The notes below the pieces were generated by a model that was given only the letters and a program-made list of their open reading frames with translations, searched no databases and was not told the origin of the DNA. The translations under genes were made by a program, and so were the position numbers. Source: Patescibacteria group bacterium (GTDB taxonomy: Bacteria > Patescibacteriota > Patescibacteriia > UBA1558 > GWA2-36-10). From it: 64,000 nucleotides of DNA. The stretch lies in assembly GCA_041665545.1 (NCBI GenBank), contig JBAYIQ010000001.1, positions 137,911 through 201,910 on the forward strand. Direction: 5' to 3'. Within the stretch, counting starts at the first letter, position 1; each line of letters opens with the position of its first letter. This document shows, piece after piece, positions 3,443 through 58,224 of the stretch.

Positions 3443-4123
3443 TTATAATAAATAACGACCGTGCGTTTGATCACTGATCACATAACCATGATCTAAGGTT
3501 ATGACGCGACTCTTTAAATTATTAACCACATCCCGATTGTGAGTCACCAGCAAAACAGTAGTGCCCATACTATTTATTTTTTTCAACAAGTCAATAATAT
3601 CTCGCGTATTGATAGAATCCAAATTTCCAGTCGGTTCATCGGCCACTAGTAGTTTTGGCTTGTGCACCAAGCTACGACCAATAGCTACTCTCTGCTGTTC
3701 ACCGCCAGATAATTGATGGGGATAGCGATCGCCCTTGTCTTTGAGGCCAACCAGGGAAAGCATCTGTTGGGCTGTTTTGATAATTTCTTTTGGCTTATAG
3801 CCACAAACCTCCAAAGCAAAGGCAATATTTTCATAGGCCGTTTTTTTCGGCAACAACTTATAATCTTGAAAAATTATTCCCAATTGCCTACGCAAGGTTG
3901 GTATCTCATAATCCTTAATATTAGTAATGTCCCAGCCCCCTATTATTATTTTGCCAGAAGTGACTTTTTCTTCAGCAATAATTAACTTAATCAGGGTGGA
4001 TTTTCCACTACCGCTTTGACCAACTACAGAAATAAACTCACCTGGCAATACTTTCAAACTAACATCCTTTAGGGCCTGAATATTTTTTTTGTAAATTTTC
4101 GATAAATTAGTTATTTCAATCAT
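3443..4123 (-). CDS. ftsE: cell-division ATP-binding protein FtsE
   Basis: Walker A GQSGSGKST, signature LSGGEQQR, Walker B LLVADEPTGNLD. Confidence 0.85.
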   Translation of the reverse strand: MIEITNLSKIYKKNIQALKDVSLKVLPGEFISVVGQSGSGKSTLIKLIIAEEKVTSGKIIIGGWDITNIKDYEIPTLRRQLGIIFQDYKLLPKKTAYENIAFALEVCGYKPKEIIKTAQQMLSLVGLKDKGDRYPHQLSGGEQQRVAIGRSLVHKPKLLVADEPTGNLDSINTRDIIDLLKKINSMGTTVLLVTHNRDVVNNLKSRVITLDHGYVISDQTHGRYLL

Positions 4124-6463: not shown

Positions 6464-7384
6464 ATGCAAATTAACCAAATCAAAACAAAAAAAATGACTT
6501 GGCTGCATATCAGCAAGCCAACGCCAGCTGATATAGAATATCTGCGCACTGAATACCAGTTTCACCCACTTGACCTTGAGGATTGCATTGGTCGTATTCA
6601 ACGGCCACAAATCAGCGAATACCCTCACTATCTTTTCTTTATTTTAACTTTTCCTTTTTACGATCGAAAAAATAGAGTAATCGAATCCAGCGAAATGGAT
6701 TTTTTTATTGGACCAAAATATTTGATCACTATCAGTGACAGCCTGACCCAAGTGGTGGACAACTTTTTTCACGACATGCAAAAAAATGACTATAGTCAGG
6801 ATCAATACATGCAAGATCATCCTGTTTTTCTACTTTATGAAATACTGCACCGCCTGCAAAATTATACTATGCCCATGCTAGATCACGTCAATCATGATAT
6901 TGAAGAAATGGAACACAATATTTTTGCTGGCAAAGAAAAAATAGTGGCCAAAGAAATTCTCAACATCAAAAGAAACATTGTGAACTTACGCAAAATAATG
7001 CAGGCCCACAAAAATATAATAAAAAAACTGATGGCCAGCAACACCAAAGTTTTTATGCCTGACAACACTCAGATATATTTTTCTAACATTTTGGACCGCA
7101 CTAAGGATATTTGGGATATCTTAGAAACACAAAAAGAAAACATTTCCGCCTTTCAGGAAGCCAATGAATCACTGATGTCTTACAAGTTGAATGAAATAAT
7201 CCGCGTGCTAACTATAATCTCAGTGGTCTTGATGCCGGCCAATTTATTGGCTGTTATCTTTGGCATGAAGAGTGAGGCCACACCGATTGTCGGCGCACGC
7301 TTTGATTTTTATATTATTGTCTCTATAATGCTGGTAATAATGGTGGGACTACTCAGCTACTTCAAAAAAAAGGATTGGCTATGA
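6464..7384 (+). CDS. corA: CorA-family Mg2+/Co2+ transporter
   Basis: Two C-terminal TMs with GMK variant of the GMN motif (AVIFGMKSE); start may be the internal Met at 6494. Confidence 0.8.
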   Translation: MQINQIKTKKMTWLHISKPTPADIEYLRTEYQFHPLDLEDCIGRIQRPQISEYPHYLFFILTFPFYDRKNRVIESSEMDFFIGPKYLITISDSLTQVVDNFFHDMQKNDYSQDQYMQDHPVFLLYEILHRLQNYTMPMLDHVNHDIEEMEHNIFAGKEKIVAKEILNIKRNIVNLRKIMQAHKNIIKKLMASNTKVFMPDNTQIYFSNILDRTKDIWDILETQKENISAFQEANESLMSYKLNEIIRVLTIISVVLMPANLLAVIFGMKSEATPIVGARFDFYIIVSIMLVIMVGLLSYFKKKDWL

Positions 7385-12762: not shown

Positions 12763-14079
12763 CTAGGCGGCTTCCGCACCCTCGGCAATGTAGGGTGCGA
12801 TCGACCCGAGCTGTCTGTCCACCAGGACACGCAACTCGCTGCGACCAGCGAAATCGGTCTTAGCCACAGCATCGACGGCCAGTTTGACGGCCGAGCCGAT
12901 ATCGGGATTATTGAGAGCGGTGACCAGAGGCATCAGCTCAGCCAGACGAGCATCGCCCTTGCCCTCGGCAGTGATCACTGCGATCCTCTTGTCGAGGGCG
13001 GTCTTGACGACATCGATACGCTTGGCCGCCAGCTCGTTCAGTCGAGCCTGAACCTCTGGGCTGGGTGTCGGGTCCTCAATCAGAACACTCTTTACCTTAT
13101 AGCCCGAAACGCTTTCCAGCCGGGCAATGGCCTCATCCCAGTTCGCGTCTTCAAAGACGCCGCCGACTTGGATCTTCTCCAGAGTTTGACCCTTAAGGAG
13201 AACCCGAAAGTCAGCACCGAAGATTTCACTCGCATACTTGACCAAGCCGGCATCAGTCCGCACCTCGGGCGGAGCAGACCAATAGGCATTCAGATTCTCC
13301 GGCCCATCAAGAATGGGGATGAACTTAACATTTACATCTCCCCCGACCTCGATATCGGGTTCACCATCAAGACCTGGGATCTTGCCACCAAGAGTAGGTA
13401 TTTTCTCAGTGACACAAGAGAGTTGTAAACCACGTCTTTCCAGGACGACATTGAATTCGAGACCTGGGGCATTCCTAGGAATCTTCGTCCGGTGGAAACC
13501 GTTGTAGAAGACATACTTGTCGAACATCCACCAGGCGTGAAAGCAACGGCGTCCGAACAGTTTCGGCGTCCATAGTTCCTGCTCCGGAACCTGAATGTTC
13601 ATGATGGCCATCGTAGATCCCGTGGCCAACGACCAAAAAATCACGGTCACCATGTGACCAAATGTCAGGATACCCAAGGTCAGGCACACGCCAGTCACAA
13701 TTGTCGAATAGAATGCCCAGGTGTCTCGCTTGTTGCCAAGCCACGGCCGCGGTTTGTAGGTGTAGTAGGCCTGTAGCGCCGTAATAGCCGCAACGAGCAG
13801 TGCCAACACCACACGAAACCACGGGAAATTGTGGGAGACCTCCTTACCAGCTGTCTTTCCAACTGTCACAGCTGTCTTTACGTCCTCAACTACAGCCGAC
13901 GGCGCAAAAAACAGCCAGTGATGGTTCCAGGAAGCGGCCAGCACTCCCACAGCCAGCAAGGCCGTGGTAATGATCGCTCTCCACCCCACCTTCAGCTTTG
14001 TGCTGTTATTGACCAGCGCGGCAACAACGGACACGATGATCGCAATCACCGCATCAAGGACGAACTTGTTCTGAAACAT
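12763..14079 (-). CDS. high-GC membrane protein with C-terminal SPFH (band-7/prohibitin)-like domain (438 aa)
   Basis: AAAGGAGGGG RBS 2 nt before ATG; 4-5 N-terminal TMs; SPFH-like core (FGRR...PGLEFNVV...) and Ala/Glu-rich tail (AVITAEGKGDARLAEL); G+C-rich vs flanks. Confidence 0.75.
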   Translation of the reverse strand: MFQNKFVLDAVIAIIVSVVAALVNNSTKLKVGWRAIITTALLAVGVLAASWNHHWLFFAPSAVVEDVKTAVTVGKTAGKEVSHNFPWFRVVLALLVAAITALQAYYTYKPRPWLGNKRDTWAFYSTIVTGVCLTLGILTFGHMVTVIFWSLATGSTMAIMNIQVPEQELWTPKLFGRRCFHAWWMFDKYVFYNGFHRTKIPRNAPGLEFNVVLERRGLQLSCVTEKIPTLGGKIPGLDGEPDIEVGGDVNVKFIPILDGPENLNAYWSAPPEVRTDAGLVKYASEIFGADFRVLLKGQTLEKIQVGGVFEDANWDEAIARLESVSGYKVKSVLIEDPTPSPEVQARLNELAAKRIDVVKTALDKRIAVITAEGKGDARLAELMPLVTALNNPDIGSAVKLAVDAVAKTDFAGRSELRVLVDRQLGSIAPYIAEGAEAA

Positions 14080-29712: not shown

Positions 29713-29741
29713 TTGACAGGTTTTTAATTATATGCTATCAT
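29713..29741 (+). promoter_or_regulatory. rnpB promoter TTGACA-N17-TATCAT (TGc extended -10)
   Basis: TTGACA 29713-29718, TATCAT 29736-29741. Confidence 0.55.
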
Positions 29742-29769
29742 ATTTTATTGATCTTCGAAATAACGAGTT

Positions 29770-30103
29770 GGGGGGTGTTGGGACGCTCGAGAAGTCCTGG
29801 GGACACCTGCTAGTTGTGGTCAGGGCCCGAACTGTTTGGGCTCGCTGTAATCCCGCAAAGGTTAGCGGGTGCAGTTTATCAGACCACGGATGGCAATCCT
29901 GATCCTTGTCTGTTGGGACAATGGGGATGGACCCGTCTTATCGTCGTCCCGAGGCCTCGGGCGACCAGCTGGCAGTGCCGATTTTTGAAAAACGTTCCCC
30001 ACAGACGGTGACGTGAAGCGCTCACGTTTCCTAGCGGGGATATCCTTGGCCAGGAGAGAATACAGGCCTCGGCTTACCTTCAGGACTTGTCCTGGCACCC
30101 CCC
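29770..30103 (+). ncRNA. rnpB: RNase P RNA (bacterial type)
   Basis: P1 pairing GGGGGGTGTTGGGAC / GTCCTGGCACCCCCC; CR-I-like CGAGAAGUCCUGGGG; CR-V-like GAGAAUACAGGCCUCGGCUUAC. Confidence 0.75.
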
Positions 30104-30119
30104 GTGTTCCTACCGATGA

Positions 30120-30160
30120 GGAGTCTTTGTCTACACCATGGCAAGACTCCTTTTCTTTTT
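30120..30160 (+). terminator. rnpB terminator
   Basis: GGAGTCTT ... AAGACTCC stem followed by TTTTCTTTTT. Confidence 0.7.
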
Positions 30161-30220: not shown

Positions 30221-30412
30221 CTACACCTTCATGCAGGGAGCGTGAGGTGTGTCGCGATGCAAGCGCAGCTTCTCGGGAGTGATGTTGTTCCCGCACTCCG
30301 CCATACTGCACTTGACGCAATGCTCGCTCTTGAGGTGCCGAAGCCCCCTTTCCGAACGCGGAAGCGTTCTCCTGTTCGCATTGTTCCCCTTGGTGACCTG
30401 CTTCTTGCCCAT
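30221..30412 (-). CDS. high-GC small basic Cys/His-rich protein (63 aa)
   Basis: CAAGGAGGGA RBS 3 nt before ATG 30412; MGKKQVTKGNNANRR...HCVKCSMAEC...HAPC; own promoter and hairpin terminator (30180-30213). Confidence 0.55.
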   Translation of the reverse strand: MGKKQVTKGNNANRRTLPRSERGLRHLKSEHCVKCSMAECGNNITPEKLRLHRDTPHAPCMKV

Positions 30413-47710: not shown

Positions 47711-49525
47711 ATGGATATACAAAAACAGCTAATTGACCAGCTGGCTAAGACCATTGGCACTATATTGGAGCAAGCTGTCACCAGCGACGATCTTAAATTA
47801 TCAACTCCGCCACAAGAAAATTTAGGCGACTATGCTTTGGCTTGTTTTGTCTTGGCCAAAAAGAATAATATTTCTGCTCCTGAGCTAGCTAAAAAACTAG
47901 CTATAGCTTGGCCAAAGAATAATTTGTTTGCCACAGCGCAAGCTATGGGGCCCTATCTTAATATCAAAATGGACGCCAACAATTTTAGCAAGTTGGCCCT
48001 TGACGAAATTTTGAGCAATAAAAAATTTGGGCAAAACAACTCTGGTAAAAATAAAAAAGTTCTAATAGAATTTTCTAGCCCCAACACCAATAAGCCCCAA
48101 CACATTGGTCATATACGCAATAATCTTTTGGGGCAAAGTTTAGTAAATATTTATAGGACTTGTGGTTATAAAGTGACTAGTATGGTCAACATGAATGACC
48201 GTGGTATTCATATTGTCAAAAGCATGTTGGCTTGGCAGGAATTCGGGCAAAACGAGACACCACAAAGTACTGGTATCAAGGGCGACCACTTGGTCGGCAA
48301 ATATTATGTAAAATTTAGCCAACTACTAAAAGAAGAGGAAAAAGTATACCTGCTCAAAAATAATATTGATTTATCAAAGATCAATGATTTGGCCAAAAGA
48401 AAAATCAATGATGATTTTTTAAAACAATCTATTTGGATGCAGAAAGCTCATAAAATGCTTATCCTATGGGAAAAAAATGACCCCCAAATAAAAAAACTTT
48501 GGCAGACCATGAACTCTTGGGTTTATGAGGGCTATAAAAAAACCTATGATGATTTAGGTGTAAAATTTGACCACACTGATTATGAAAGCGAAAATTATCT
48601 ATTAGGTAAAGATATTGTTGACTTTGGTTTAAAAAATAAAGTTTTTTATAAAAAAGAAGATGGCTCTGTCTGGATTGATCTGACTAAAGAGGGCTTAGAT
48701 GAAAAGATAGTCTTGCGTAGTGATGGCACCTCTGTTTATATGACTCAAGACATGGGCACAGCTAAACGACGCTATGATAAGTTCAAATTTGACCAAGCAA
48801 TTTATGTAGTAGCTTCCGAGCAAGACTACCATTTTAAAGTATTATTTTTGATCTTAGCCAAACTTGGTTTTGCTTGGGCCAAAAACTTATATCATTTATC
48901 TTATGGCATGATTTCTACGCCTGACGGTAAAATAAAATCTCGCGAAGGCAAAACTGCTGATGCTGACGCTATTATTGAGGAGACAATCGCCCGTTCCAAA
49001 ACCATGATGGCTCAAGCCGAAAAAAAGAACCTAAAACAAAATGATCAGGAAGCTATTGCCAAAGACGTAGCTATGGCGGCTATCAAATTCTGCATGCTTG
49101 GTACCAATCCGCAAAAAAATATTGTTTATGATGCCCAAAGCTCTATCACGCTTGATGGCTACACTGGACCATTTGTCCAATATACTCATGCTCGTATTTC
49201 TAGCATCCTAAACAAAGCTGAAAAAGTAAAAAAAATTAACTGGTCTACCTTACAAATAAACGCCGAGGAAATAAAATTAATCAAACAATTGGTACTTTAT
49301 CCGGAAATCATCAAACAAGCCGCTCTAGAATATAATCCAGCCGTACTGACTCACTATCTTTTTGACTTGGCTAAAATATTTAATAATTTTTATCAGCAAC
49401 ACTCAGTATTATCAGCTGACAATGAAGCTCAGAAAAATTTTAGATTAAATATTTGCCTGAGTTGCCGACAAATCATAGCCGCTGGTTTGGAAATTTGCGG
49501 TATCAAGGCCCCAAAAATAATGTAG
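47711..49525 (+). CDS. argS: arginyl-tRNA synthetase
   Basis: SSPNTNKPQHIGHIRN (HIGH), class I core, DALR-type C-terminus. Confidence 0.9.
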   Translation: MDIQKQLIDQLAKTIGTILEQAVTSDDLKLSTPPQENLGDYALACFVLAKKNNISAPELAKKLAIAWPKNNLFATAQAMGPYLNIKMDANNFSKLALDEILSNKKFGQNNSGKNKKVLIEFSSPNTNKPQHIGHIRNNLLGQSLVNIYRTCGYKVTSMVNMNDRGIHIVKSMLAWQEFGQNETPQSTGIKGDHLVGKYYVKFSQLLKEEEKVYLLKNNIDLSKINDLAKRKINDDFLKQSIWMQKAHKMLILWEKNDPQIKKLWQTMNSWVYEGYKKTYDDLGVKFDHTDYESENYLLGKDIVDFGLKNKVFYKKEDGSVWIDLTKEGLDEKIVLRSDGTSVYMTQDMGTAKRRYDKFKFDQAIYVVASEQDYHFKVLFLILAKLGFAWAKNLYHLSYGMISTPDGKIKSREGKTADADAIIEETIARSKTMMAQAEKKNLKQNDQEAIAKDVAMAAIKFCMLGTNPQKNIVYDAQSSITLDGYTGPFVQYTHARISSILNKAEKVKKINWSTLQINAEEIKLIKQLVLYPEIIKQAALEYNPAVLTHYLFDLAKIFNNFYQQHSVLSADNEAQKNFRLNICLSCRQIIAAGLEICGIKAPKIM

Positions 49526-49562: not shown

Positions 49563-50735
49563 ATGGACAAAAAATTATACAAGTATTGGAGCGAGGAAGA
49601 ATTTAAAAAAGCCAAGGACTTTGCCGCCAACAAGCAAACTCCTTTTTTATTAATTGATCCTAAGCGCGTTGCTAAAAAATACAAAAGTTTAAAGGCCAAC
49701 CTACCCTTGGCCAAAATATACTACGCCATGAAGGCCAACCCGCACGATGAAATCATCAGGACTTTGGCTGACTTGGGCTCAAATTTTGATGTGGCTTCTA
49801 TTTTTGAAATACAAAACTTGATGGACTTGGGTATTGCTGGCGACCGCATGAGCTTTGGCAATCCAGCCAAAAAAGAATCAGATATTATATTTGCCTACCA
49901 ACATGGCATCAGGATATTTGTCACTGATTCCATGGATGATGTGCACAAATTAGCCAAAAATGCTCCTGGCGCCAAAGTTTTTTTCCGCTTACTATTTGAA
50001 GGCAATGGCGCTGTCTGGCCATTATCCAAAAAATTTGGTGCTCATCCTGATATGTTGTACAAACTTATCTTGGAAGCCAAAAATCTAGGTCTAGAGCCCT
50101 GTGGCATTTCCTTTCATGTTGGCTCCCAACAAAAAGATATTGGTCAATGGGATCACGCTCTTTCTTTGTGCAAATACATGTTTGACACTATGAAATCCGA
50201 GGGCTTGGAGCTCAAAGCTATCAACTTGGGTGGTGGCCTACCAACCAAATATGTCGGACCAATACCCAGTCTAAAAAAATACACTGACGTTATCAACCGT
50301 TTGCTTAGTGAAAATTTTGGCGACAATATGCCAGAAATAATGATTGAACCCGGCAGATATATTGCTGGCGACTGCGGTATGATCATCAGTGAAATAATTT
50401 TGATTTCCAAAAAATCCGAGACCTCTGAACATCGCTGGGTTTATATTGATGTCGGAAACTTTACTGGCTTGTGTGAAACCGAAGAAGTGATTTTTCCGAT
50501 CTACGCTGACCCAGAAATTTATCTTCCAGGACAAACCTCGGAAAGCGAAGTAATATTGGCTGGACCAACTTGCGATTCCTCGGATATTATTTACCAAAAC
50601 TACAAGCATAAATTGCCCGATGATCTCAAAGAGGGTGATCGACTGTATGTCATGAGCACTGGCGCTTACACCTATGCTTACAGCGCTGTTTGTTTCAATG
50701 GCTTTCCAGTTTTGAAAACTTATATCCTAAGATAA
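49563..50735 (+). CDS. PLP-dependent decarboxylase, ornithine/DAP/arginine decarboxylase family 2
   Basis: IYYAMKANP PLP-lysine motif, GGGLP, C-terminal beta-barrel. Confidence 0.8.
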   Translation: MDKKLYKYWSEEEFKKAKDFAANKQTPFLLIDPKRVAKKYKSLKANLPLAKIYYAMKANPHDEIIRTLADLGSNFDVASIFEIQNLMDLGIAGDRMSFGNPAKKESDIIFAYQHGIRIFVTDSMDDVHKLAKNAPGAKVFFRLLFEGNGAVWPLSKKFGAHPDMLYKLILEAKNLGLEPCGISFHVGSQQKDIGQWDHALSLCKYMFDTMKSEGLELKAINLGGGLPTKYVGPIPSLKKYTDVINRLLSENFGDNMPEIMIEPGRYIAGDCGMIISEIILISKKSETSEHRWVYIDVGNFTGLCETEEVIFPIYADPEIYLPGQTSESEVILAGPTCDSSDIIYQNYKHKLPDDLKEGDRLYVMSTGAYTYAYSAVCFNGFPVLKTYILR

Positions 50736-50836
50736 ACAAAAAAACGCCCTGCAATTTCTGTGGGGTGTTTTTTATTTTAAACAAAATTAAGAACGCGTCC
50801 CCGAAGAAACGCGTTCTGGAAAGAACAGGCCTACTT

Positions 50837-51253
50837 TCACTTGCTCACACTGGGAAAATGCGGGTCACGGTACTCGTCATTGTCGTCTTTGACAACGAAA
50901 GGAGAAACATCCTCCAAGCGCAACTCGGTGGTGCAGATGAAGGGTGACGACTCGACGACACGCGGTGGTTGAAACAGATTGGCCTCAGGAGTCAGCTTAG
51001 AGGCCAAAAAGTCCCGAATCCTCCTATGCCAGAGCAAGCCCAATGGCTTCTTGTTCTTCCTTTGCCAGACCAACTCCAAGCGCCAAGGCCTTTCCTCAGC
51101 CGTGATCGACACCTCCAAGCCACGATGGCTGATGTACTTCATAATCTCCGGCAACAGTAGCCCAAGCTGCTGACCCAGATGCCTCCTGACAGCCAAGGTG
51201 TTGACATGACGACCGTTAGCGAACTTAATGTCAGCTCTTTTCTTACCGACCAT
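50837..51253 (-). CDS. high-GC hypothetical protein (138 aa)
   Basis: CAAGGAGGAA RBS 6 nt before ATG; own promoter; hairpin AGAACGCGT...ACGCGTTCT terminator (50790-50818). Confidence 0.6.
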   Translation of the reverse strand: MVGKKRADIKFANGRHVNTLAVRRHLGQQLGLLLPEIMKYISHRGLEVSITAEERPWRLELVWQRKNKKPLGLLWHRRIRDFLASKLTPEANLFQPPRVVESSPFICTTELRLEDVSPFVVKDDNDEYRDPHFPSVSK

Positions 51254-51303
51254 GAGCTATTCCTCCTTGAAGGTTCAAGTGCCCCAAAAAATGGGAATAT
51301 GAT

Positions 51304-51332
51304 AACATATAATATTTATCCCCTCTTGTCAA
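51304..51332 (-). promoter_or_regulatory. promoter of cassette 3 (TTGACA-N17-TATGTT)
   Basis: tgtcaa 51327-51332 on plus strand. Confidence 0.45.
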
Positions 51333-51382
51333 TGGCAAAACAAAAAAACAACCCAGTGGGTTGATTATTAATAATGCATGCT

Positions 51383-51507
51383 CTCGTGTCCCTCGACTCA
51401 CTCCGTTCGCTCGGGACACTCGATTCGCAGGAATGAGAATGGTCGGAGGTGCGATAAAGCACCGTAGACCACGAGTGAGTCTTTTGCAAAGCAAAAGGCG
51501 AATCGAG
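51383..51507 (-). repeat. tRNA-trailer structured element, copy E3 (fused to CCA of tRNA-Lys)
   Basis: 125 nt; near-identical to E1 over the tRNA-proximal ~70 nt; followed by AACCCACUGGGUU+U7 terminator (51347-51372). Confidence 0.7.
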
Positions 51508-51584
51508 TGGTGCGCCCAGTAGGATTCGAACCTACGACCGTTTGCTTAAAAGGCAACTGCTCTACCAGGCTGAGCTATAGGCGC
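51508..51584 (-). tRNA. tRNA-Lys (anticodon TTT), CCA encoded
   Basis: GCGCCTA/TGGGCGC acceptor, loop CTTTTAA, T arm GTAGGTTCGAATCCTAC. Confidence 0.9.
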
Positions 51585-51607
51585 ATAAATATAAAAATAC
51601 GCAAATT

Positions 51608-51636
51608 ATTATAGATTAATTATTGGGTATTGTCAA
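51608..51636 (-). promoter_or_regulatory. tRNA-Lys promoter TTGACA-N17-TATAAT
   Basis: tgtcaa 51631-51636, attata 51608-51613 on plus strand. Confidence 0.6.
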
Positions 51637-51666
51637 TTTTGCTTTAATACACCTTTAGCGCTGTTA

Positions 51667-51695
51667 TTGACAAAAATAAATAAATATGATATAGT
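51667..51695 (+). promoter_or_regulatory. promoter of cassette 4 (TTGACA-N17-TATAGT, TGa extended -10)
   Basis: TTGACA 51667-51672, TATAGT 51690-51695; 5' UTR hairpin TCCTAATCAGA/TCTGATTAGGA. Confidence 0.55.
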
Positions 51696-51800
51696 AACGA
51701 ACTTGTTCTTTATAAACTCCTAATCAGAATTTTGTCCAGCAAATTGCCTGATAAAGCTCTGATTAGGAAACTATCACTTCTCTGAACTGGAGGACTTACC

Positions 51801-52700
51801 ATGGATTACCCGCGGAACTCGGTCTGCATCTATCACAGTGCGGACAATGACGGCGCTTGCAGTGCGGCCATCGCCAAGTTGGCGGCTCGTGTCAGACTGA
51901 TCCCCTGGAATTATGGACACCCCATACCCTGGGAGAGAATACCCGTCGGCGCTACGATCTTTGTGGTCGATCTGCTGCTCACCAGCCAGAACGACAACAG
52001 TGGTTTCCAGGACATGGAGCGCCTGCGCAAGATCGGTAAGCTCGTCTGGATTGACCATCACGACAAGGCCATCAACGACGCCAAAGTGTTGGGTTTGGCC
52101 TATGATGGCATCCAGCGAGTTGGTCAGGGCGCTTGCGCTTTGACCTGGGAATATTTCTTCCCCAACAAGCCCATGCCCGAAGCAGTCCGGCTGATCAGTA
52201 ACTTCGATGTCTTTGACCATAGGGAGGTAAAGACAGTCCATTTCCAGTACGGCTTGCGTGCTTGCAATGCCAAGCCCTGGATGGACATTTGGAAAGATCT
52301 TCTTAAGCCACCCTTCCAAAGCGATGCTCTGGTCAACCAGCTGGTCAGTGATGGTATCCCCATCACCAAGTACCTGACCTTGGAATTCGCCCGCTACATG
52401 CGAGTCTGTGGCTTCGAGACTATTCTCGACGGGCACCGTGCCATTGCGGTGAATCGTGCTCTGGTCAACAGCCAGATCTTCGAATCTGTACACAACCTCG
52501 AAGACTATCCGTTGCAGATGTACTTTTACTGGAGCTCTGACGGCTCATGGAAGGTGAGCATGCGTTCGCCCGACGGTCGCGTGAACTGTGCAGAACTCGC
52601 AGCCAAGTACGGTGGTGGCGGACACAGCCGAGCAGCCAGTTTCGTGTGCCAGGAACTGCGCTTTGAACTCAAAGGGCGACCTGACGCCGATCCTGACTGA
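51801..52700 (+). CDS. high-GC DHH/DHHA1-family phosphoesterase (NrnA-like, 299 aa)
   Basis: YHSADNDGACS (DHH motifs I-II), WIDHHDK (DHH), YGGGGHSRAAS (DHHA1 GGGH); CTGGAGGAC RBS. Confidence 0.85.
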   Translation: MDYPRNSVCIYHSADNDGACSAAIAKLAARVRLIPWNYGHPIPWERIPVGATIFVVDLLLTSQNDNSGFQDMERLRKIGKLVWIDHHDKAINDAKVLGLAYDGIQRVGQGACALTWEYFFPNKPMPEAVRLISNFDVFDHREVKTVHFQYGLRACNAKPWMDIWKDLLKPPFQSDALVNQLVSDGIPITKYLTLEFARYMRVCGFETILDGHRAIAVNRALVNSQIFESVHNLEDYPLQMYFYWSSDGSWKVSMRSPDGRVNCAELAAKYGGGGHSRAASFVCQELRFELKGRPDADPD

Positions 52701-52719
52701 GTAACGAGAAGTTGATCCT

Positions 52720-52762
52720 GACCCCGGCTAGTGGCAACACTGGTCGGGGTCTTAAATTTGTT
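52720..52762 (+). terminator. terminator of cassette 4
   Basis: GACCCCG ... CGGGGTC stem then TTAAATTTGTTT. Confidence 0.6.
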
Positions 52763-52855
52763 TATAATTTATAAATATTGGGTATAAATTGTATATAAAC
52801 CCGGCTTGAAAAAAGCCGGGAAATGGGTTAAGCTAATCCTACATTAAGCAAACCC

Positions 52856-55958: not shown

Positions 55959-56693
55959 ATGGAAAAGACCGAAAAGACCGCCTTTGCTGTTCTGCACATG
56001 AGCCGTCACGAATCCAGCTCGCCCCAAGCCAACTATGGCCTGGGAACACTGGGTCCCATGGACTACCGCGGAATCCCGGTTCGCTACCACCCCAATTCCT
56101 TCATGCGTGACTCCGGTTACCGCATGCTGGAAATCCAGCTCCCGAAGAACCAGAACGAAGCGGGAGTCGCGATGGCTGTCATGCACGCAGGTCAGATTCG
56201 GGGAGCCATCAGTTCCCTGCAGGATCAGCTCAACAGTCTGACACCGGAAAAGATCTCCCACTACAACCTGATGATCAACGAACTGCTTCGCAAGGGCTAC
56301 CTGATGCACAGCCAAGTCCTCTACTTCAAACCCTGGCAATCCGGTCTCGTGGCCAAGTACGGCTGGGGCATCAATGGCTCTGGTGGCATGGTCATGTTCG
56401 GACAGAACAACTTCGGACAGAGCTTCGGAGTACAGGCCGGACACCAGCTGGTGCAGGTGGTCTTCCGACCCACTCCGTACGCCGACGGACTGATCTGTCG
56501 CTACGGCTGGGGCATCACCGTATGCCAGCCGGAAAGCATCAAACGTGTGCTGAGTGGTCTGCGCAAGCAGCTCGACAACGCCGTGTTCTTCCAGGAGCAC
56601 GGCTGTCTACTCGAAGACTTCGATCGGCCGAGTCTGGCATGCCGACTGATCGCCCGTCAGGCGACCCACGCGTGCCAGCAAACCACCGCATAG
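55959..56693 (+). CDS. high-GC hypothetical protein (244 aa) with duplicated YGWGI motif
   Basis: GGAGG 8 nt before ATG 55959 (tracked ORF starts 55944); VAKYGWGINGSGG and ICRYGWGITVCQ; no family recognised. Confidence 0.65.
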   Translation: MEKTEKTAFAVLHMSRHESSSPQANYGLGTLGPMDYRGIPVRYHPNSFMRDSGYRMLEIQLPKNQNEAGVAMAVMHAGQIRGAISSLQDQLNSLTPEKISHYNLMINELLRKGYLMHSQVLYFKPWQSGLVAKYGWGINGSGGMVMFGQNNFGQSFGVQAGHQLVQVVFRPTPYADGLICRYGWGITVCQPESIKRVLSGLRKQLDNAVFFQEHGCLLEDFDRPSLACRLIARQATHACQQTTA

Positions 56694-56858: not shown

Positions 56859-57257
56859 ATGAGTCCGAAACAGCTTGCTGCCATCCCGTTCTGCATTTTG
56901 ACCGTAGTTGCCATGTTCTTATGGGTTGCCGGTCGTCCCACTGGCAAGCCCGACACAACGCGACTCTTCTCAATTGGGACTGATGCCCATCAGGTTCCGT
57001 GTGGTGACATCGGCTACGATGCCACCTTCCGCTACTATGCCGGAAACGACACGGCGGGCGTGACGGTAGCCAATCTCAATCCCGGGCTCGTAACGATCCA
57101 TCTCATGGATCGCCTGAGCAGGGATATCTACGGACGCAAACCCGTGCGGATCAACGGTGATCAGGCCAACCTGGAGATCATCAACAACGCCACCAATGAG
57201 GTGATTTGCCGCTGGCAGATCACCATCGATCGTCAGGTCGGTGTTGCCACCCGCTGA
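56859..57257 (+). CDS. high-GC small membrane-anchored/secreted protein (132 aa)
   Basis: CAAGGAGGGA RBS 7 nt before ATG 56859; N-terminal hydrophobic helix AAIPFCILTVVAMFLWVAG. Confidence 0.65.
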   Translation: MSPKQLAAIPFCILTVVAMFLWVAGRPTGKPDTTRLFSIGTDAHQVPCGDIGYDATFRYYAGNDTAGVTVANLNPGLVTIHLMDRLSRDIYGRKPVRINGDQANLEIINNATNEVICRWQITIDRQVGVATR

Positions 57258-57990: not shown

Positions 57991-58087
57991 GGAATTTATT
58001 TCTTTTCTTATTATATAAAAACTGGCCGTCGCACCTGCCTGTCTGCCGATAGGCGGGCACTTGACCCAATAGCATATATTTACTATC

Positions 58088-58139
58088 GAATGGTCGTAGA
58101 CCACGAGTGAGTCTTTTGCGAAGCAAAAGGCGAATCGAG
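58088..58139 (-). repeat. truncated tRNA-trailer element, copy E4
   Basis: GAATGGTCGTAGACCACGAGTGAGTCTTTTGCGAAGCAAAAGGCGAATCGAG = E1/E3 proximal module with its internal hairpin deleted. Confidence 0.65.
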
Positions 58140-58211
58140 TGGTGGGCATAAGAGGACTTCCGCCTCCGCCCCTCACTTTGTTCGGGGCTATGGCGGACAG
58201 GCGAACCTCTG
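58140..58211 (-). pseudogene. orphan tRNA 3' fragment (T arm + acceptor + CCA) with GC-rich hairpin inserted in the T loop
   Basis: AGAGGTTCG + 42-nt insert (CCTGTCCGCC...GGAGGCGG) + AAGTCCTCT TATGCCCA CCA; no D or anticodon arm upstream. Confidence 0.55.
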
Positions 58212-58224
58212 ATTATTTTAGAAA

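Follow-up and report, generated by a model that had tools for sequence, protein, structure and literature searches.

How did the streamlined genome of an ultra-small, uncultured member of the Patescibacteria come to have a GC-rich gene for a DHH/DHHA1-type protein between tRNA-Lys and dnaB, and what might the gene product do? The gene (product NCBI WCV69_00975, encoded on a 295-kb Joint Genome Institute (JGI) contig) lies in a 64,000-nt stretch of a contig from a Patescibacteria metagenome-assembled genome, referred to here as the window; fetched relative loci carry L-numbers. Relatives were found by a DnaB-based scan of species-representative genomes and through the contexts of homologues of c3, a 138-aa open reading frame (ORF) on the other side of tRNA-Lys. 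Comparison with these loci showed an ordinary horizontal gain, at a variable intergenic slot, of a predicted phage-type DHH phosphodiesterase. A preliminary description of the locus had proposed an inserted unit bracketed by a duplicated piece of the tRNA-Lys promoter; its observations were confirmed in part, and its interpretation was partly supported.

A lineage-specific insert between tRNA-Lys and dnaB

The elements named in that description, namely tRNA-Lys, a divergent pair of consensus promoters (matching 12/12 and 11/12 positions), the DHH ORF with its terminator, and c3, were all located. Those that bear on the insert are as follows (UTR, untranslated region; SD, Shine-Dalgarno).

51508-51584, minus strand: tRNA-Lys, anticodon UUU (ARAGORN and Rfam, 70 bits)
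51636-51608, minus strand: tRNA-Lys promoter, TTGACA-17-TATAAT, 12/12 consensus, kept in L005, L088 and L090
51637-51674, no strand: resident spacer common to the empty sites; the identity run with L088/L090 stops at 51674
51667-51695, plus strand: DHH promoter, TTGACA-17-TATAGT with TG preceding the -10, 11/12 consensus
51675-52775, plus strand: lineage-specific insert of 1,101 bp (AAA ambiguity: 51672-52772 equally valid)
51718-51768, plus strand: stable hairpin in the DHH 5'UTR, folding z-score -4.8; no shuffle folds as well
51789-51794, plus strand: DHH SD site GGAGGA, read from sequence
51801-52700, plus strand: DHH/DHHA1 ORF, 299 aa, predicted virus-type phosphodiesterase
52720-52751, plus strand: DHH intrinsic terminator, 14-pair hairpin with 9 G-C pairs
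52776-52855, plus strand: ancestral dnaB upstream region, aligning with L005 7921-7995, L088 and L090
52856-54301, plus strand: dnaB, the conserved right-hand neighbour of tRNA-Lys in the clade, followed by ybaB, recR and the L21 gene

Empty sites show that the DHH unit was gained by one lineage between tRNA-Lys and dnaB, as had been supposed. The two genes are separated by a geneless gap of 286 nt in L090, 273 nt in L088, 279 nt in L005 and 313 nt in L008 (DnaB 99.6%, 99.2%, 90% and 66% identical, respectively), compared to 1,271 nt, DHH included, in the window. L088 and L090 represent sister species rather than strains, since dS (synonymous divergence) of their housekeeping genes is 0.3-0.6. 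Far from being shared at this place by all relatives, the DHH gene was missing from L005, L006, L007, L008, L088 and L090.

Base-by-base comparison with L088 and L090 placed the junctions at 51674/51675 and 52775/52776. Identity with these two loci reaches 51674 (...TTATTGACAAA) and restarts at 52773 (AAATATTGGG...) with a 3-bp AAA overlap, and the window-specific DNA therefore amounts to 1,101 bp (51675-52775), containing a -10 element, the 5'UTR, the SD site, the DHH ORF and its terminator. An assembly or binning chimera, in which GC-rich foreign DNA was joined into an AT-rich contig, would account for the sharp compositional change, yet deserves practically no credence: two Logan assemblies, each from another sequencing run, match the JGI contig at 100% identity over a stretch that starts inside tRNA-Lys, spans DHH and ends in dnaB, so that the junctions are not an assembly artefact, and the promoter, UTR and terminator are coherent.

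The reverse history, with DHH ancestral at the site and deleted in the relatives, is very unlikely. The locus is indeed deletion-prone, the window itself being without a ~125-nt pseudo-tRNA leader found in L005, L088 and L090. However, at least two independent clean deletions would be needed (one in the L005 lineage and one in the L088/L090 lineage), the absence of the gene extends to L006, L007 and L008, no homologue of >45% identity was found anywhere, and the gene departs from the rest of the genome in codon usage and in its SD site.

The insertion point lies directly 3' of a resident TTGACA (51667-51672), which is now the -35 of the DHH promoter. This promoter is composite, combining the resident -35 with an insert-borne, TG-extended -10 (TATAGT) at a spacing of 17 nt. 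A resident dnaB promoter split by the insert was considered and rejected, as the TTGACA of the empty site has just TATATA 18 nt downstream and fails the consensus scan.

A repeat scan of the locus found no terminal inverted repeats at the insert ends; nor is there a target duplication of greater length, the junctions having just AAA in common. With DHH as the sole ORF, no inverted ends and an overlap of just 3 bp, a transposable element or insertion sequence was rejected. No integrase or transposase families occur among the genes of window positions 41801-62700 (precomputed Pfam assignments, ~21 kb), and the insert is neither within nor abutting the tRNA gene, being located ~90 nt upstream of its 5' end, past its promoter; a tRNA-targeted integrative element was rejected on these two grounds. 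As with tRNA-targeted islands and prophages, foreign DNA stands beside a tRNA gene at a locus that varies among relatives, but the insert has no integrase and no duplicated tRNA 3' end, and measures 1.1 kb as against 10-100 kb. Integron gene cassettes are similar in being single-gene units swapped at a fixed slot; unlike them, the locus has neither an attC-like site nor an integrase, and each unit has its own promoter. A likeness at 8/12 positions of the 12 nt ending at each junction (counted by hand) was unconvincing in AT-rich DNA.

The flanking repeat

According to the preliminary description, the arrival of DHH duplicated part of the tRNA-Lys promoter and left imperfect direct repeats at 51608-51630 and 52761-52785 as its footprint. 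A repeat does exist: TAATTATTGGGTAT (51617-51630) and TAAATATTGGGTAT (52772-52785) match at 13/14 positions and bracket the unit, and the exact 10-mer included in them, TATTGGGTAT, has only two sites in the 64-kb window. True bracketing repeats are also found elsewhere, 35 nt long around a gene labelled c249 in L088 and 68 nt long around a 380-nt unit in L006. The similarity at the DHH unit is nevertheless no greater than chance allows. When the two intergenic stretches were resampled with a first-order Markov model, ~10% of the resamples had a word of ≥10 nt in common and 21% reached the local alignment score of the repeat; the repeat is one of 17 short direct-repeat families in the 1,271-base region.

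The uninterrupted site of L090 (...TAATTATTGGGTATTGTCAATTTTACTTTAATACACCCCTAACCCCATTATTGACAAATATTGGGTATAAATTG...) already contains both copies of TATTGGGTAT, 57 nt apart, one in the tRNA-Lys promoter spacer and the other upstream of dnaB. In L088 and L005 the right copy is present, while the spacer corresponding to the left copy differs (TATTAAGTAT and TATTCGATAT, respectively). What forms the left copy is the ancestral promoter spacer; the right copy (52772-52775 plus 52776 onward) consists of ancestral sequence upstream of dnaB rather than a duplicated promoter piece. In the second copy as originally delimited, the initial 13 nt (TTTATAATTTATA) belong to the insert; given the AAA ambiguity, the other bases (AATATTGGGTAT) could be flanking sequence. 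Of the actual junctions, one is found 44 nt rightward of the left copy and the other within the right copy. Because both copies stand in the uninterrupted site of L090 and their similarity is within chance, the repeat is not an insertion footprint: the insert landed between two pre-existing, weakly similar AT-rich motifs, and the repeat is coincidental. Refuted by the empty sites, an origin through promoter duplication is highly improbable.

Family and structure of the DHH protein

The family assignment rests on several comparisons. In Pfam, DHHA1 scored 26.6 bits (cut-off 25.9) and DHH 23.4 bits, under its cut-off of 28.1. In PHROGs the protein matched phrog_4771, 'DHH phosphoesterase', over its full length (residues 5-286 of 299; E=5.3e-37, 128.7 bits). 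The NCBIfam equivalog model of NrnA (NF053633) gave 32.1 bits against a cut-off of 350, with an alignment covering the C-terminal 100 residues only, which rules out a housekeeping NrnA and agrees with the earlier proposal of an accessory enzyme distinct from the NrnA of the lineage. The active site is intact: motifs I-IV of the DHH superfamily (DxD, D, DHH, D), the DHHA1 GGGH motif and the two-lobe fold were all found, and the residues invariant in a 49-sequence alignment (D15/D17, D57, D85-H86-H87, D136 and GGGGH at 271-275) are present in the window protein.

Among 5.8 billion proteins no second copy of the exact protein occurs; its next-best match is 43-45% identical, and its family comprises >600 proteins of ~280 aa. 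Relatives are encoded on 324 IMG/VR viral contigs, and the homologue contexts inspected were phage or prophage in 4/4 cases: one gene adjoins ERF/YqaJ recombination genes and tail genes, another lies directly 3' of DNA polymerase A, a third sits in an early region with a LexA-like repressor, and the fourth is placed between a CI repressor/integrase and terminase. One of the closest homologues (P0005, 44%) is carried by a phage-like contig, L004, which also encodes a homologue of ribosomal protein L7/L12 (288-632).

The AlphaFold2 model (predicted local distance difference test score 93, predicted template modelling (TM) score 0.86) has two lobes joined by an ordered 29-residue helix (175-203); the protein is without a signal peptide or membrane segment. 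Sequence matches in the PDB were marginal and confined to the GGGGH region. A Foldseek search against the PDB returned M. smegmatis NrnA, Rv2837c (CnpB), TM1595, DhhP, PggH and Pde2 (E=1e-10 to 1e-12). These cellular enzymes have the two-lobe fold, the catalytic and GGGGH motifs and a length of ~300 aa in common with the window protein, but identity to them is just 12-17%, and its linker is helical where theirs is disordered. Predicted viral structures fit much tighter, with TM scores of 0.79/0.83 to the DHH protein of Pseudomonas phage PaBG and 0.72-0.78 to giant-virus DHHs. Taken together, the viral DHH-DHHA1 enzymes (phrog_4771; jumbo-phage and giant-virus proteins; 'Group 4/5') agree with the window protein in profile match (E=5e-37), fold (TM 0.7-0.8), catalytic motifs and, judging by the model, an inter-lobe helix; unlike theirs, the window gene is in a cell, outside any recognisable prophage, and its product is at most 45% identical to known members. 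An ordered inter-lobe helix has been described for the virus-rich DHH groups 4 and 5, which include an enzyme that degrades 3'3'-cyclic GMP-AMP and other messengers (bioRxiv 10.64898/2026.07.21.739742); helix 175-203 of the model would suit a candidate member.

Two further DHH families were tried and rejected. In GdpP, N-terminal transmembrane helices, a PAS domain and a degenerate GGDEF domain precede DHH/DHHA1, whereas the 299-aa window protein begins motif I at residue 12, with only DHH and DHHA1 detected. RecJ has extra OB-fold or C-terminal domains and exceeds ~550 aa, as against only 299 aa here, and RecJ structures matched just the core, with lower scores.

Based on the Pfam and PHROGs matches, the NrnA score, the genomic contexts and the viral structural matches, the protein is classified as an accessory, virus-type DHH from a phage-borne family, and it does not cluster with NrnA.

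Origin of the unit

The history we consider likely is that a phage-type single-gene expression unit, encoding a stand-alone DHH-DHHA1 phosphodiesterase of a phage family, inserted in this lineage only. The 1.1-kb unit starts with a -10 element and a structured 5'UTR, continues with a GGAGG ribosome-binding site and the GC-rich ORF, and closes with an intrinsic terminator. It entered the ~100-nt spacer between the tRNA-Lys promoter and dnaB and landed right after the resident TTGACA, so that this hexamer now acts as its -35. As the junctions share just 3 bp, the ends are not inverted and no recombinase lies nearby, we infer that illegitimate or microhomology-assisted recombination of DNA taken up by the cell or delivered by phage is the likeliest route. 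Competence genes and phage-mediated transfer have been reported for Patescibacteria (PMC12455944).

The DHH gene has a foreign signature, with a GC content at third codon positions (GC3) of 0.68 and a strong SD site, compared to GC3 of 0.24-0.48 in ~50 other window genes. In its layout the unit resembles phage 'morons', reportedly described by Hendrix, Juhala and colleagues in 2000 as a promoter, an ORF and a terminator of atypical composition lying between genes that are adjacent in relatives. It likewise has a single ORF, a sigma-70-type promoter, a terminator, odd composition and a position between genes adjacent in relatives, but it stands in a bacterial chromosome with a -35 that seems to be borrowed, and the likeness is an analogy, the concept having been defined for phage genomes.

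Several observations weigh against so simple a history. A 10-nt patch (51654-51663) differs from L088 and L090 at 6/10 positions between near-identical flanks, and the 5' non-coding part of the insert is AT-rich and host-like (GC 0.33); these features leave room for a somewhat more complex event, for an insertion anchored on promoter-like similarity, or for a passage through an unsampled relative. A nucleotide-level donor search with the non-coding ends of the insert and the ORF against ~170 fetched loci yielded chance matches only; the non-coding ends match no other sequence compared, and no donor was found. Among 84 phage loci, no neighbour cluster recurred in more than 5, and no substrate clue was obtained from conserved neighbours. 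Finally, since resident genes of the window (c3, c167, c249 and c438) have the same GC-rich, SD-led signature, composition alone is no proof of recency.

Candidate substrates

Judged from its motifs and modelled fold, the DHH protein is probably a small-nucleotide phosphodiesterase. Enzymes of this fold class hydrolyse short linear oligonucleotides and 3'-phosphoadenosine 5'-phosphate (pAp), and several members also hydrolyse cyclic dinucleotides. Candidate substrates, most likely converted to mononucleotides, would be linear di-/oligonucleotides and pAp, and cyclic dinucleotides are possibly among them. A product that hydrolyses small nucleotides would be useful to a nucleotide-scavenging Patescibacteria cell; for such a cell, hydrolysis of dinucleotides or nanoRNA appears somewhat more likely than destruction of second messengers, a role that is itself plausible.

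A domesticated phage counter-defence gene, whose product destroys immune or signalling cyclic nucleotides (those of the cyclic-oligonucleotide-based antiphage signalling system (CBASS) or type III CRISPR, or cyclic di-AMP) instead of recycling nanoRNA, is possible, if on balance doubtful. It accords with the phage-borne nature of the family and with the linker helix common to the model and viral groups 4/5. A prediction that DHH enzymes of jumbo phages counter cyclic-nucleotide immune signals has been published (PMC7824862). In a July 2026 preprint, signalling by 3'3'-cyclic GMP-AMP (3'3'-cGAMP) was blocked by a mimivirus DHH and by a phage DHH, and the mimivirus enzyme degraded 3'3'-cGAMP and many other messengers (bioRxiv 10.64898/2026.07.21.739742). 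However, a cell would gain no obvious benefit from disabling its own signalling. A motif scan, which is a weak test on 64 kb, found no cyclase or CBASS gene and no DAC or further DHH motifs in the window, and PADLOC gave no match for DHH or the other cassette proteins. The recurrent phage neighbours of the family include genes of replication and nucleotide metabolism (ThyX, MazG, DNA polymerase B, DnaB) besides packaging and head genes (portal, terminase), and a part in the final step of nucleotide recycling fits this placement equally well.

Variability of the locus

On the left of the insert, the locus contains the following features.

47711-49525, plus strand: ArgRS, the upstream neighbour at the locus
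49563-50735, plus strand: ornithine/diaminopimelate-type decarboxylase, between ArgRS and c3
50790-50817, minus strand: c3 terminator, 12-pair hairpin with a T-rich tail; a homologous hairpin lies 3' of the L005 c3 homologue
50837-51253, minus strand: c3 ORF, 138 aa, function not assigned, GC-rich, with a GGAGG SD site
51304-51332, minus strand: c3 promoter, TTGACA-17-TATGTT
51349-51363, minus strand: terminator hairpin of the tRNA-Lys transcript, CAACCCACTGGGTTG then TTTTTTT
51378-51507, minus strand: structured 3' trailer of tRNA-Lys ('E3' in the preliminary description)

The interval from ArgRS through tRNA-Lys to dnaB showed six different arrangements across the window and six relatives. 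Since its content differs among relatives, the term 'insertion hotspot' holds in a descriptive sense. From ArgRS to dnaB, the loci contain:

Window: decarboxylase, c3, tRNA-Lys, DHH
L088: decarboxylase, c3, two small low-GC membrane ORFs, tRNA-Lys
L090: decarboxylase, c3, low-GC ORFs of 53 aa and 213 aa, tRNA-Lys
L005: c3 homologue, three low-GC ORFs, tRNA-Lys; without decarboxylase
L006: inverted tRNA-Lys, then a 380-nt GC-rich promoter/terminator unit within a 68-nt direct repeat
L007: two GC-rich mini-units for peptides of 44 aa and 29 aa

Both of the last two place their units between tRNA-Lys and dnaB. The direct repeat of L006 (7493-7560 and 7873-7940) is 84% identical, and each mini-unit of L007 (290-660 and 700-1050) consists of a promoter, a leader, GGAGGA, a GC-rich ORF (44 or 29 aa) and a terminator.

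On either side tRNA-Lys has GC-rich genes, as previously noted, with GC3 of 0.67 in c3 and 0.68 in DHH against 0.25-0.43 in neighbouring housekeeping genes. The suggestion that c3 too is an insert did not hold: it occupies the same position in three sister genomes (L088, L090 and L005), with leader, SD site and terminator conserved, and is therefore a resident gene, not a recent arrival. It evolves fast, at 73-77% amino acid identity compared to 97-99.6% for DnaB, RecR and the decarboxylase, and with a ratio of nonsynonymous to synonymous divergence (dN/dS) of 0.16-0.17 compared to 0.01-0.08. No relatives of c3 were detectable outside the clade, and no informative fold match was obtained.

Divergence is uneven along the locus. 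ArgRS differs from its L088/L090 counterparts with dS of 0.9-1.1 (82-91% amino acid identity), whereas dS is 0.3-0.6 for the adjacent decarboxylase, DnaB and RecR (97-99.6%), which suggests a mosaic recombination history.

Between tRNA-Lys and its promoter, L005 (7722-7822), L088 (~6860-6976) and L090 (~6675-6792) carry a degenerate 5' half of a pseudo-tRNA-Lys, interrupted by a GC hairpin, which the window is without. The difference looks like either a deletion between two GCGCAT ends or a remnant, in the relatives, of an older integration. In L090, three tandem ~38-nt hairpin repeats (GGCGTGCCATAAACC...GTTTATGG; 6871-6985) replace the tRNA-Lys trailer.

The trailer is one copy of an element of ~130 nt that occurs in the window at 19535-19663, 19750-19879, 51378-51507 and 58010-58139, in all cases on the minus strand and directly 3' of tRNA CCA ends. 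In it, a long closing stem is combined with internal hairpins and a second hairpin, and compensatory changes were seen from copy to copy as well as in L088 and L005; in a six-copy alignment, 9/30 predicted pairs stay paired through changes on both sides. The tRNA-Lys trailer has a folding z-score of -3.8, and no Rfam family matched the element. Downstream of tRNA-Val, a segment at 58140-58224 (minus strand) aligns in register with the tRNA-Lys 3' end and finishes in GCCCACCA; no tRNA was called there, and the segment may be a pseudo-tRNA or an atypical tRNA.

GC-rich genes led by strong SD sites

The signature of DHH (consensus promoter, leader, GGAGG SD site and intrinsic terminator) is also carried by c438, c3, c249, c167 and a 63-aa Cys-rich ORF, with GC3 of 0.61-0.74 in the five ORFs scored. 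The genes with this signature are located as follows.

12763-14079, minus strand: GC-rich, SD-led gene
30221-30412, minus strand: 63-aa Cys-rich ORF
50837-51253, minus strand: c3
51801-52700, plus strand: DHH
55959-56693, plus strand: GC-rich, SD-led gene
56859-57257, plus strand: GC-rich, SD-led gene

None of the ~50 other ORFs of the window (GC3 0.24-0.48) has a strong SD site, one of them showing a weak AGGA match. In sister species the resident members have retained the signature, and they evolve fast (dN/dS 0.16-0.44). A c438 homologue in the more distant L172 (45% identity) still has GC3 of 0.54 and AAAGGAGGG, with neighbours at 0.26-0.36. The gene c249 is absent from L090, and in L088 a duplicated promoter of 35 nt (2955-2989 and 3876-3910, 80%) brackets it, so that bracketing by a promoter copy, the model once put forward for DHH, fits c249 and not DHH. 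Homologue searches showed c3, c438 and c249 to be orphans, none of c3, c249, c167 and c438 matched a known family, and no literature on this GC-rich, SD-led pattern was found.

Two further promoter-driven GC-rich stretches, at 29726-30160 (plus strand, ~430 nt) and 26020-26340 (minus strand, ~320 nt), have no convincing ORF and no Rfam match at E<0.1. Within the former, AGAAGUCCUGGG resembles the P4 region of RNase P, and both stretches may be divergent housekeeping RNAs.

That DHH is the newest recruit to a class of genes maintained by the clade, each with its own promoter, structured leader, GGAGG SD site and GC3-rich ORF in a fixed intergenic slot filled differently from species to species, seems rather unlikely. 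Such a class could be the sign of an expression regime of its own, or of genes still flowing in from a mobile, GC-rich pool, for example the phages of the clade. Its genes might serve the cell in conflicts against phages or its host bacterium, and DHH might then destroy cyclic-nucleotide signals, in analogy to CdnP of M. tuberculosis, which destroys such signals in its host.

Implications

The DHH locus presents a clean, well-bounded single-gene gain in a streamlined Patescibacteria genome. With empty sites, exactly placed junctions and a composite promoter, it is useful as a textbook example, albeit an unsurprising one, as gene transfer into Patescibacteria, phage-derived genes included, is already documented (PMC12455944). 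A more curious point is that the signature of DHH matches that of older resident genes, against an SD-poor genome background. The remaining interest lies in the substrate of the DHH enzyme and in the class of GC-rich, SD-led genes: the finding would gain in importance if the enzyme degrades signalling nucleotides, and likewise if these units stem from an expression regime or a gene pool that is distinct within these episymbionts.

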